A stretch of 4,793 nucleotides of DNA from a virus (lineage: Duplodnaviria > Heunggongvirae > Uroviricota > Caudoviricetes). Positions 2,586-4,793 of the stretch are shown in pieces. Under the pieces are notes generated by a model. That model worked only from the letters and a program-made list of their open reading frames with translations, was not told the DNA's origin and did no database searches. Within the stretch, counting starts at the first letter, position 1, and each line of letters starts with the position of its first letter. The position numbers were made by a program, and so were the translations under genes. The stretch lies in IMG/VR virus record IMGVR_UViG_3300029577_000119; one strand, given 5' to 3'.

Positions 2586-2969
2586 TGGCACATTCGATTA
2601 CTGTAAGACTAAACAAGCCCGCAAGAGAGTTTCAGGCCGNNNNNNNNNNATATCGGATTCAACATCCGTGCTGGCGTTCAGTATTACGATCGCCAGACAA
2701 AAAAGAAAGAATGGACAAACTACAGCGCCGTTGTATTTGCCAAGCCGGGAGCGCAAGCGGATTACTACCGTAGTGTTCTTGTTGAAGGTGGAATTGTGGA
2801 AATTACCGGAGAAAACATCAGGGTTGATGTTTATCAGGGGCAAAATGGTCAATCAATCACTCTTGAATTACTGAATGCAAAGATTGGATTTGCAGCTTCA
2901 GGAAATGGCCAGCAGCAAAGTAGCAATCATCAAAATCATCCTGAATACGACGATTCAATTCCCTTCTAG
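2585..2969 (+). CDS. ssb: phage single-stranded DNA-binding protein (SSB), interrupted by an assembly gap
   Basis: ATG 2585 overlaps erf stop (TAATG). N-terminal MAHSITVRLNKPAREFQA runs into the N-run. After the gap, the frame with codons at 2652.. reads IGFNIRAGVQYYDRQTKKKEWTNYSAVVFAKPGAQADYYRSVLVEGGIVEITGENIRVDVYQGQNGQSITLELLNAKIGFAASGNGQQQSSNHQNHPEYDDSIPF*, ending in the acidic DD(S)IPF tail diagnostic of bacterial/phage SSB. The two halves are in different frames relative to window coordinates, so the 10 Ns do not represent the true gap length. Confidence 0.7.
2640..2649. other. run of 10 N (assembly gap or masked bases)
   Basis: Ten consecutive n characters in the sequence, inside the ssb reading frame. 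Confidence 0.95.
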
Positions 2970-2992
2970 ATTAGCAAAATAAGGCTCCCATT

Positions 2993-3289
2993 ATGCCAGC
3001 GCCTCTGTATGGTGCGGATGACCCGCGCAACTGCTCCGGTAGCTCCAAGGCGGAGGTGCTGGAAAATATCAAAAATAATTTCGACACGTTTATCGATCTT
3101 CCACCAGAAACAAAAGCAGAACGGATGTACCGACGCGATATACAACTCGCGTTAAAAGATGAGAAGGACCGAACAAACGAAACAGCAATGAGACCGTTGC
3201 GAAAAGAGACAATAGACAAATTCCCTGAATATATCGACCCGCGCCTGCGTAATTACCGCTCACGCTATGGCGCTATCAGTAATGACTGA
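2993..3289 (+). CDS. hypothetical protein, 98 aa; possibly Abc2-like anti-RecBCD protein (unverified)
   Basis: ORF-track ORF; ATG 2993 with AAGG 8 nt upstream. Translation [98 protein letters not shown]. The Abc2 suggestion rests only on size (P22 Abc2 is about this length) and position distal to the recombinase in the pL operon; sequence not confirmed from memory. Confidence 0.6.
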
Positions 3290-3299
3290 GGAATTTACC

Positions 3300-3464
3300 A
3301 TGAGAGGACTTGCATACAATCCCGGCATTCTTCCGGCAGAAATGATTATTCGCCAACGCGTAAAGCCAATGCCATCGAGAGAGAAATTGCTTAAGAGAAA
3401 GAGTTTCGGTTCTGTTAATGACAACAAATATCTGAATGCAATGTTGCGGAGTGGGAAGAAATGA
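3300..3464 (+). CDS. hypothetical small basic protein (54 aa)
   Basis: ORF-track ORF 3267..3464; I prefer the in-frame ATG at 3300, which has GAGGA at 3288-3292 (7-nt spacing) and begins after the 98-aa ORF stop (3287-3289). Translation [54 protein letters not shown]. Stop overlaps the next ATG (ATGA 3461-3464). Confidence 0.5.
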
Positions 3465-4042
3465 AACAAATGTCACTAATTAAGATGGATGGTTTTCTGA
3501 AAGGTAAATGCATCCCATGTGATTTAAAGGTTAACGAAACAAACGCTGAATATCTGGTGCGTAAGTTCGGTGAACTTGAATCAAAACTAGAAACGGCGTT
3601 GCGGGAGTGTCGTTCTGCTGGAATCACGATTGATAACCTTGAGGCCAAGTGCGCGGCGCTGGCTGTGGAGAATGCGTGGCTGAATAAATTTATCGTACAG
3701 AGTTGCTACGTGTTTGACGGCGAGCAGGGTGAACTATCTGATGCGTATATCTGCGCAATAGACGGAAGGATGCCGCAAACCCAAGTCACCGACGCTTTTT
3801 GGGATGAAGTGAAGACTGAAGCACGCAAGGAAGGCGCTTACTTTGTGGCGAACAGAATGCTGGCTGCCTGGGATGCTGGTTTTATTGATGATACTGCGAA
3901 GAACGCAGCGGATATTGCCAGGATGATTCTTACCTCTACTGAGTTTATGGCTAATGCGCCGGAAGGCGATTTCGATCGCTCGTTCGCTGATGGTGTACTC
4001 GAAGACATCGCCGCCCAGATTCGCAAGGGGGACGCGCAATGA
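3461..4042 (+). CDS. hypothetical acidic protein, 193 aa (phage accessory 'ea-region' type gene)
   Basis: ORF-track ORF; ATG 3461 overlaps upstream stop (ATGA). Contains a CxxC pair near the N-terminus (CIPCD), a predicted helical segment ([40 protein letters not shown]) and an acidic C-terminal half. Not recognised. Confidence 0.75.
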
Positions 4043-4581
4043 GCAACATCGACAAACAGGCGCTGCGTGAAATCGCAGCGGCAGCAGTTGGCGCACATGA
4101 GCGCCTTAGTGTTATGCCGCCTGATGACATTTTCGATATCTCACTGGCAGAAGGAACTCAGCTTGATGCAGATATCACTGCCTTGAACGCGCTGAACTCC
4201 GCAGCAAACCCCACTACCGTGCTGGCGCTGCTGGCATCGCTGGAAGCCGCAGAGAAGCGCATTGCAGAACTGGAAGCGCGTGCATTCAATCCTGCAATTC
4301 TGGATGTGATAGCAGAGCGCCAGCGGCAACAATCGGTTGAGGGGTGGATGCCAGAGCATGATGACGAACACTGCAACGGGGAACTGGCAATGGCGGCGGT
4401 TTGTTACATAAACGAAACAGGAACTGTTAACCGCAATGGTGGCAAGCCGTGGGGGTGGCCTTGGGATACTTCATGGTGGAAGCCAAATGCCCGCCGTCTC
4501 AACCTGGTAAAAGCAGGGGCTTTAATTCTGGCTGAAATCGAACGCATAGACCGCGCCGCTGGCATCGGTAAGGGGGAGTGA
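4039..4581 (+). CDS. hypothetical protein, 180 aa; possibly Ead/Ea22-like family (unverified), with a Trp-rich C-terminal motif
   Basis: ORF-track ORF; ATG 4039 overlaps upstream stop (ATGA 4039-4042), AAGGGGGA upstream. The segment TTVLALLASLEAAEKRIAELEARA resembles a motif I associate with Ead/Ea22-like prophage proteins. C-terminal part carries HDDEHCNGELAMAAVCY and GGKPWGWPWDTSWWKP. Family assignment is from memory only. Confidence 0.75.
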   Translation: MSNIDKQALREIAAAAVGAHERLSVMPPDDIFDISLAEGTQLDADITALNALNSAANPTTVLALLASLEAAEKRIAELEARAFNPAILDVIAERQRQQSVEGWMPEHDDEHCNGELAMAAVCYINETGTVNRNGGKPWGWPWDTSWWKPNARRLNLVKAGALILAEIERIDRAAGIGKGE

Positions 4582-4793
4582 TGCTTCAACATCAAATGCA
4601 GCCAACATTTAACACCTGCATGGCTACCTGTGTAGCAATGGTTGCTGGTCAGCCTGTTGACGAGGTGGTTGCTCGCTGGCACCAGGCTTTTCACGACAAA
4701 ACAGACTGGCTGGATGATGCCCTGGATTATTACAAAATCCCTTACTTCTACGGCAGCCAAAGAAAATGTGAACTGCTTTATGGGTTTATTTAT
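4581..4793 (+). CDS. 5' part of a CDS continuing past the window; N-terminus has a papain-like/C39-like cysteine peptidase motif (tentative)
   Basis: ATG 4581 overlaps upstream stop (TGATG 4579-4583) and is preceded by strong SD AAGGGGGAG (4570-4578). Open to the window end: MLQHQMQPTFNTCMATCVAMVAGQPVDEVVARWHQAFHDKTDWLDDALDYYKIPYFYGSQRKCELLYGFIY.. The Q-x6-C-x3-C-x-AM arrangement resembles the Gln (oxyanion) and catalytic Cys signature of C39-type peptidases (Q..C-G-x-A-C-L-x-M). The catalytic His/Asp would lie beyond the window. Confidence 0.6.
   Translation, partial: MLQHQMQPTFNTCMATCVAMVAGQPVDEVVARWHQAFHDKTDWLDDALDYYKIPYFYGSQRKCELLYGFIY

Follow-up and report, generated by a model that had tools for sequence, protein, structure and literature searches.

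Do tightly joined phage genes that share a transcript also share a function? This question is raised by positions 3,300 to 4,793 of IMG/VR record IMGVR_UViG_3300029577_000119, a 4,793-nucleotide (nt) stretch of Caudoviricetes DNA referred to below as the window. Four open reading frames (ORFs) follow each other here on the + strand: ORF1 (3300-3464; ATG at 3300, stop codon at 3462-3464, 54 amino acids (aa)), ORF2 (3461-4042; 193 aa, a chimeric EaE/Oad2-family protein), ORF3 (4039-4581; 180 aa, a modular Ead/Ea22-like protein) and ORF4 (4581-4793; beginning at 4581 and running past the window end, with 71 of its 143 aa inside the window). Direct reading of the DNA placed their stop-start joins at 3461-3464 (ATGA, ORF1/ORF2), 4039-4042 (ATGA, ORF2/ORF3) and 4579-4583 (TGATG, ORF3/ORF4), exactly where they had been put in an earlier interpretation made without database searches (the sequence-only reading). 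That interpretation had taken the joins to imply stoichiometric co-expression and joint function, and had proposed the block as a candidate anti-defence or defence operon and as the best place in the window to look for an undescribed system. The analysis reported here favours a different answer, to which we assign a probability of about 0.8: the block is the promoter-proximal part of a P22-type 'ea' region in a P22-like temperate enterobacterial phage, made up of independent, non-essential accessory genes in the tail of the early-left (PL) operon, and not a multi-component system.

Co-occurrence of the four genes

Positions 3200-4793 were compared by megablast with 50,697 phage records and 5,426 complete E. 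coli genomes. Fragments of the block were recovered from 238 of the phage records and from 1,568 of the 5,426 E. coli genomes, and no single place in either collection covered at least 80% of the query. For loci from IMG/VR (the best 80 per query at most), six modules were mapped, namely ORF1, the ORF2 head, the ORF2 C-terminal domain, the ORF3 head, the ORF3 C-terminal domain and ORF4, and neighbours were counted only at loci with enough flanking DNA. All six modules were found at one locus in none of 259 IMG/VR loci, and the four genes were jointly present only in near-identical copies of the segment (L263, L264 and L266). Independent occurrence is the very outcome that the sequence-only reading had named as contradicting its proposal of a unit, and the idea that the genes move together was accordingly abandoned.

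The neighbours of each gene were counted separately. With ORF1 as anchor (70 loci), abc2 lay upstream in 63 and the ORF2 head came next in 62, the ORF2 C-terminal domain was found in 22, and the ORF3 C-terminal domain and ORF4 were found in none. ORF2-like genes (38 loci) were followed by the ORF3 head in 8 cases, with the ORF3 C-terminal domain downstream in one and ORF4 in none. Around the ORF3 C-terminal domain (57 loci), ORF4 was the next gene in 3 and modules of ORF1 or ORF2 were upstream in 3-4; the 3' neighbours of this domain fell into 43 unrelated clusters across 63 loci, and no conserved partner gene was found beside it at these 63 loci. ORF4 itself (25 loci) had the ORF3 C-terminal domain upstream in 9, the others being preceded by TraR-like zinc-finger, HNH or unrelated genes.

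Exchange was also observed within the genes. Among distinct proteins, the ORF3 C-terminal domain was attached to a foreign N-terminus in 62 and to its own in 9, the ORF2 head carried a foreign C-terminus in 46 and one of EaE type in 41, the EaE-type domain followed a foreign head in 28, and the Ead head was joined to a foreign C-terminus in 29. The head of ORF2 was even seen joined to the C-terminal domain of ORF3 (in L169 and L006). Each half-gene module is found with another partner at least nearly as often as with its partner in the window, and mostly more often. The phage host ranges of the ORF3 C-terminal domain family and the ORF4 family differ as well.

Stop-start overlaps and recombination linkers

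A Shine-Dalgarno-like purine run precedes each of the four starts (TGAGGAA before 3300, GGAGTGGGAAG before 3461, AAGGGGGA before 4039 and AAGGGGGAG before 4581), and translational coupling of the four genes is plausible. Packing is tight and co-transcription of the genes very probable, 2900-4793 being free of promoter-like sites. To this extent the sequence-only reading is upheld; its use of the overlaps as evidence of a functional unit is not. Joins of the same types were found elsewhere in the window operon, at 1720-1723 (ATGA, kil/gp33-like) and 2583-2587 (TAATG, erf/ssb). The P22 ea region has 4-nt overlaps of its own, at eaE/orf45, eaF/eaD and eaD/eaI, and relatives of ORF4 keep a 1-nt overlap with most of their unrelated upstream genes.

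The junction sequences themselves are conserved. At the ORF3/ORF4 junction (4558-4583, +), the upstream gene encodes the tail ...AAGIGKGE, contains the Shine-Dalgarno sequence AAGGGGGAG and ends in TGATG; this tail, with its TGATG, ends at least four otherwise unrelated proteins that precede ORF4 homologues. EaE- and Oad2-type proteins end in ...QxRKGxxQ followed by ATGA. ORF2 and ORF3 are built alike, with a short head that leads into a coiled coil and, behind it, a C-terminal domain that can be exchanged; the internal linkers TPATDAFLAEVRA and LEAAEKRIAELEA are domain joints. These data show that recombination at short conserved linkers shuffles heads, C-terminal domains and whole genes. Because the upstream tails carry the ribosome-binding site of the next gene, a stop-start overlap persists with any neighbour. 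Since the overlaps join unrelated genes and lie in conserved tails, they reflect operon packing and recombination linkers and not joint function, of which such overlaps should not be taken as evidence in operons of this kind. With modules recombining freely and overlaps general to the operon, the proposals of joint function and of an undescribed system lose their footing.

One displaced copy was found in a different phage. At L265:5374-6979, the equivalent of window 3777-4793 (the C-terminus of ORF2, ORF3 and ORF4) is present as a piece of about 1 kb with 97% identity, located in the rightward (PR) operon downstream of a lambda-P-like replication gene and not behind abc2. The accessory cassette can therefore occupy either early operon. 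This block, the ORF2-ORF3 fusions described below and the adjacency of ORF3 and ORF4 all fit recent block transfer combined with linker-mediated recombination.

Correspondence with the ea region of P22

The locus is the PL operon of a temperate phage of P22-like or lambdoid type. Its conserved left flank is abc2 (2993-3289, +), the anti-RecBCD gene found upstream of the ORF1 homologue in the 63 loci mentioned above, which matched PF11043 (1.4e-35) and phrog_656 and whose product is 61% identical to P22 Abc2. The wider order of genes can be read from L263, a 34-kb scaffold from a human-gut metagenome that matches the whole window at 99.8% identity and carries the ORF3-identical protein cluster P0029: N, several small genes, a gene for a 322-aa coiled-coil protein, cIII, kil, Erf, SSB, Abc2 and ORF1-ORF4, followed by an EaA/DUF551-like gene, two small genes (one with a helix-turn-helix motif) and the integrase gene. 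The placement of the block between the recombination genes (Erf/SSB/Abc2) and xis/int, which had been proposed without sight of the flanking DNA, is borne out on this scaffold, and the variable region in question is indeed a recognised hotspot for accessory and counter-defence genes.

On the P22 map, the order is abc2, orf56, eaE, orf45, eaF, eaD, eaI, eaA, eaG, eaC, xis and int, and the genes of the block can be matched to its slots, with ORF1 corresponding to orf56, ORF2 to eaE and ORF3 to eaD, and with the peptidase gene ORF4 in the slot of eaI. This correspondence, together with the EaA-like gene that comes next on L263, identifies the block as a variant of the classical non-essential 'ea' region, which is the counterpart of the lambda exo-xis region. 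The two regions have in common the operon, its flanks, the order of homologous slots and the 4-nt overlaps; ORF1 is 72% identical to orf56, residues 60-190 of ORF2 are 67% identical to EaE, and the start of ORF3 resembles that of EaD, the tail being similar as well. They differ in the N-terminus of ORF2, which is of Oad2 type, in the middle and C-terminal domain of ORF3, which are unrelated to EaD, and in gene content, the block being without orf45 and eaF and having a C39-like peptidase gene in place of eaI.

In some relatives (L266:305-595 and L270:2553-2843), abc2 is separated from the DUF2737 gene by an extra 96-aa gene with a weak DUF5405 match, which is gp29 of HK446 and resembles gene 24 of Sf6. 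Even the best-conserved junction of the region is thus an insertion site.

Family assignments and ORF1

Each of the four ORFs matched a Pfam or PHROG family, and they are therefore real genes and not chance ORFs. The statement in the sequence-only reading that none of them matches a nameable function proved only partly true, since ORF1 belongs to the DUF2737/orf56 family, ORF2 is EaE/Oad2-like and ORF3 is Ead/Ea22-like. Searches of PADLOC-DB gave no match for ORF1-ORF4 at E <= 0.1, and NCBIfam likewise returned nothing for them. Comparison with the PDB, using single sequences and profiles of ORF2, ORF3, the C-terminal domains of both and ORF4, yielded no significant match. Because the block contains no internal promoter-like site, its genes are probably not expressed in the lysogen; this and the lack of a PADLOC match speak against the defence variant of the earlier proposal.

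ORF1 matched PF10930 (DUF2737) with 100.6 bits (cut-off 25; residues 1-53 over 53 profile positions) and phrog_1117 (1e-36), and is the counterpart of P22 orf56, HK97 gp38 and HK620 hkaI. An in-frame ATG at 3267 would give an alternative product of 65 aa; the DUF2737 profile fits residues 1-53 of the 54-aa form. ORF1 would be a small basic protein associated mainly with abc2.

ORF2, a chimera of Oad2 and EaE types, and the Gp33-like gene

ORF2 matched phrog_614 and phrog_14548. Its N-terminal head and coiled coil (aa 1-75; 3461-3685, +) form an Oad2-type module, which shares 56 of its first 60 residues with HK446 gp27 (Oad2); the alignment between the two proteins extends over 135 aligned residues (aa 1-122 of ORF2) at 59% identity, and they have the coiled coil and a TPATDAF motif in common. 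The C-terminal region (aa 60-190; 3638-4030, +) is a P22 EaE-type domain (E 1e-55 to P22 EaE at the identity given above), for which single-sequence and profile searches gave no Pfam or PDB match. No alignment to HK446 gp27 was obtained for the last ~70 residues of ORF2. In gene position, ORF2 lies directly after the DUF2737 gene and behind abc2, like HK446 gp27 and HK75 gp28, and is thus the positional orthologue of Oad2; the counts given above place an Oad2-type head behind DUF2737 at 62 of 70 loci.

HK446 gp27, named Oad2, has been reported in a preprint of July 2026 to bind and inhibit the P2 OLD abortive-infection nuclease, to be related to P22 EaE and to be fused in some cases to EaD/Ea22 proteins; Gp33 of HK75/HK446 was identified there as a trigger of the OLD nuclease (bioRxiv 10.64898/2026.07.10.737580). 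OLD is an ATPase-TOPRIM nuclease, and a homologue of its Gp33 trigger is also encoded by the window phage. The suggestion that the block is an anti-defence candidate is in this respect upheld, ORF2 being related to a newly reported anti-defence factor. The two proteins differ in the C-terminal ~70 residues, which are unrelated, ORF2 bearing the EaE-type domain there, and the target of ORF2 may differ accordingly from that of Oad2.

The Gp33-like gene lies outside the block (1720-1878, +; 52 aa), its start overlapping the kil stop codon as ATGA. The first 45 of its 52 residues are identical to HK75 Gp33, and the C-terminus diverges after residue 45. A 56-aa ORF in another frame (1799-1969, +) overlaps it by 80 nt and is homologous to the gene that follows kil in other prophages (L001); gene callers differ in which member of the pair they pick. 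This second ORF had been considered as the Gp33 homologue and was rejected, the overlapping ORF at 1720-1878 giving the match instead. The pair may represent a recombination junction that truncated gp33.

ORF3 and its C-terminal domain

ORF3 matched PF13935 (Ead/Ea22) with 63.5 bits, above the cut-off of 27, in aa 2-81 only. Ea22 has been described as tripartite, its head and coiled coil being followed by a C-terminal domain that varies (PMC10834534). In the structure predicted for ORF3, residues 6-24, 28-55 and 58-82 form long helices, and the C-terminal domain behind them is separate and helical too; this would agree with a layout of short N-terminus, coiled coil and separate C-terminal domain. 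ORF3 thus resembles the Ea22 proteins of lambda and Stx phages in its N-terminal part, in its overall architecture and in its location in the early-left accessory region. It differs from lambda Ea22 in its C-terminal domain, which is predicted to be all-helical, as opposed to the mixed alpha-beta dimer fold of Ea22, and which is a separate, widespread domain.

This autonomous domain (aa 83-180; 4285-4578, +) is recognised by the pattern ER.RQ ... EGW.(x)EHDD ... WPW ... WWKP ... LAEIERIDR, with invariant columns at E11, R12, R14, G20, D26, D27, R71, E84, E86, R87, D89 and R90. No Pfam match and no PDB match at E <= 10 was found for it, using either the protein or a profile of the domain. It forms the C-terminus of proteins that are 115-647 aa long and occurs in 168 isolate-phage records, 106 of them from Pseudomonas phages, the other hosts including Rhodobacter, Xanthomonas and Acinetobacter, with representation even in actinobacterial phages. 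The ORF3-identical protein (P0029) is encoded by 11 contigs, and its surroundings differ among them.

ORF4, a probable C39-like cysteine peptidase

The full ORF4 gene is present on L263 (10543-10974; 143 aa), and ORF4 matched phrog_4049. Searches with the 71-aa fragment of the window retrieved four proteins only, and a full-length homologue and a profile search were then used, giving 711 representatives at E <= 0.001 in a library of 50%-identity clusters, typically of 135-160 aa. Across 100 diverse members of the family (mean column identity 16%), the only invariant columns were Q7, C13, H85, D101 and P102; among the active-site residues, Gln7 and Cys13 are located inside the window, while H85 and D101 are present on L263. 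Pfam matches among these 100 members were to Peptidase_C39 (35; best E 2.4e-6), C58 (7), C39_2 (5) and DUF3335 (2). ORF4 itself remained below the Pfam threshold, whether represented by the window fragment, the full-length L001 homologue or P0008, and the family profile gave sub-threshold PDB matches only, to the PCAT peptidase domain and PfhB2. The invariant Gln-x5-Cys ... His ... Asp-Pro signature and the Pfam matches of its relatives nevertheless justify the earlier description of ORF4 as peptidase-like.

Peptidase C39 comprises the bacteriocin-processing double-glycine peptidases of clan CA, with which ORF4 has in common this signature, the motifs NTC..C.AM, then H, then DP..G, and a domain size of about 140 aa. 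C39 peptidases are N-terminal domains of ATP-binding cassette (ABC) exporters, whereas ORF4 is a stand-alone cytoplasmic protein, and no transporter or leader-peptide gene was seen near ORF4 loci. Relatives of ORF4, all with less than 60% identity, were found in 184 isolate-phage records, including Ackermannviridae, Seuratvirus-like, Vibrio and Pseudomonas phages; the family is thus encoded by virulent phages as well as among the accessory genes of temperate ones, and every record listed gives its members the label 'hypothetical'. The homologues of Serratia and Yersinia prophages lie between the recombination module and int, with other neighbours, lacking a Pfam match, upstream.

At the loci L180-L185, a TraR/DksA-type C4 zinc-finger gene (the motif was judged by eye) lies immediately upstream of the gene for the C39-like peptidase. 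We take this zinc-finger gene to resemble lambda orf73, another gene of the exo-xis region.

Proposed roles and alternative explanations

If the block is a P22-type ea region of independent genes, all of them would be transcribed from PL in the first minutes after infection or induction, and every product would act alone on a host target of its own. ORF2 would most likely inhibit an immune protein of the host or of a prophage by binding it directly, with an exchangeable C-terminal domain that would set target specificity; candidates for the target are an OLD-type nuclease and other sensors that respond to the RecBCD-manipulating genes of the phage (Abc2, Gp33-like). ORF3 would be an oligomeric Ea22-like scaffold presenting its conserved, charged C-terminal domain, and ORF4 is probably a cysteine peptidase active in the cytoplasm, with a protein of the host or of a defence system as its substrate. 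The functions are best read as counter-defence, host takeover or modulation of the lysis-lysogeny decision.

Several observations weigh against this account. The IMG/VR loci include redundant prophages and are a non-random sample. ORF2 and ORF3 are fused in a 396-aa frame at L262:9353-10543 (...RKGGSP-MSNIDK...; an NCBI assembly); the join is genuine or else the product of a 1-nt indel in the ATGA junction, and the same fusion is represented by phrog_14548 (378 aa). An ORF3-type C-terminal domain lies upstream in 9 of 13 readable E. coli-type ORF4 loci, with a 1-nt overlap. The structure models, an all-helical AlphaFold2 model for ORF3 (mean pLDDT 71.5) and one for ORF4 with a pLDDT of 57.6, are too weak to confirm the fold of ORF3 and a papain-like fold of ORF4, respectively. 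Finally, the C-terminal domain of ORF2 is unlike that of Oad2, and the 54%-identical HK75 homologue of Oad2 fails to inhibit OLD (bioRxiv 10.64898/2026.07.10.737580); for these two reasons, anti-OLD activity of ORF2 is not to be assumed.

The overlaps, the joint presence of all four genes in the near-identical L263, L264 and L266 and the existence of ORF2-ORF3 fusions are what could be expected if the four genes were, after all, one undescribed, co-functioning and stoichiometrically expressed anti-defence or defence system. Such a system is nonetheless highly improbable, and is largely refuted by the co-occurrence data: beyond the near-identical copies the genes are never together (0 of 259 loci, and no record or genome at the 80% level), their modules pair elsewhere more often or nearly as often, the same types of overlap occur at kil/gp33, at erf/ssb and between ORF4 and unrelated upstream genes, and PADLOC gave no match. 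A smaller unit has more in its favour. ORF3 could act as regulator, substrate or targeting subunit of the ORF4 peptidase in a two-gene module, possibly within a cassette of the ORF2 C-terminus, ORF3 and ORF4, as the 9 of 13 E. coli-type loci would suggest; identical ORF3 adjoins ORF4 in 6 of 7 places, again with a 1-nt overlap, and the 97%-identical L265 segment behind replication gene P holds precisely this part of the block. Even so, the two-gene module is unlikely, given that ORF4 comes next in only 3 of 57 ORF3 C-terminal domain loci and that this domain never precedes the more distant homologues of ORF4 (77-92% identity), which stand instead behind TraR-like, HNH or other genes or, in the Serratia and Yersinia prophages, behind proteins with no Pfam match. 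The isolate-phage lineages of the two families differ, and where both occur in one genome they are more than 10 kb apart. In L267, identical ORF3 is followed by a gene called at 115 aa as compared with 143 aa, the first ~50 bases of ORF4 having been replaced. The adjacency of the two genes is accounted for by recombination at their common AAGIGKGE/TGATG linker. Overall, there is a small chance of pairwise cooperation among the genes.

A further alternative concerns function and is compatible with a region of independent genes. The genes could be modulators of the lysis-lysogeny decision, like those of the lambda/Stx exo-xis region, and not counter-defence genes. In that region, orf60a, orf61 and orf63 favour lysis. 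Ea22 favours lysogeny, as judged from deletion phenotypes in lambda and Stx phages (PMC7093339, PMC10834534), and ORF3 belongs to the Pfam Ead/Ea22 family and has an identical operon position. The likeness between ORF3 and Ea22 is limited, however, to the N-terminal and coiled-coil part, the C-terminal domain being different; that domain and ORF4 are also found in virulent phages, which make no lysogeny decision, and the characterised protein closest to ORF2 is an immune inhibitor. A role of the genes as modulators is less likely than not, and it suits the modules shared with virulent phages poorly.

As a 'system', the block is of little weight, being one more mosaic variant of the long-known P22 ea/lambda exo-xis region, and its value lies in three single-gene leads. 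ORF2 is a natural domain-swap variant of Oad2, and, because the swap is found in a phage with a Gp33-like OLD trigger, it is useful for locating the determinant of specificity. ORF4 represents a widespread family of small, probable cysteine peptidases of phages in which the catalytic tetrad is intact, and the C-terminal domain of ORF3 is conserved, with no family assignment, from enterobacterial to Pseudomonas, Rhodobacter and actinobacterial phages. A bolder interpretation, which is rather doubtful, would see in ORF4 a large unannotated family of stand-alone C39-like peptidases serving as host-takeover or counter-defence proteases (for example, by proteolysis of an immune protein or by stripping off a ubiquitin-like modification after Gly-Gly), in the ORF3 C-terminal domain a new catalytic or target-binding domain, and in ORF2 an Oad2 variant retargeted to a different immune sensor.

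Other features of the window

Two runs of N are scaffold gaps and not biology: the first, at window 2639-2649, breaks ssb, and the second, at L263:11300-11400, is located in the EaA/DUF551-like gene. Between the N region and cIII, the window encodes (463-1431, +) the 322-aa protein already mentioned, which is extremely rich in Glu, Ala, Lys and Arg, is predicted to form a coiled coil and belongs to phrog_1376; it has no Pfam match, and its RefSeq label in L001 is 'cell envelope biogenesis protein TolA'. Just 5' of this gene, inside the PL operon, is a strong intrinsic-terminator-like hairpin (423-450, +; 8-bp stem, then TTTTTT). N antitermination presumably lets transcription pass it, as at the P22 terminator after gene 17.

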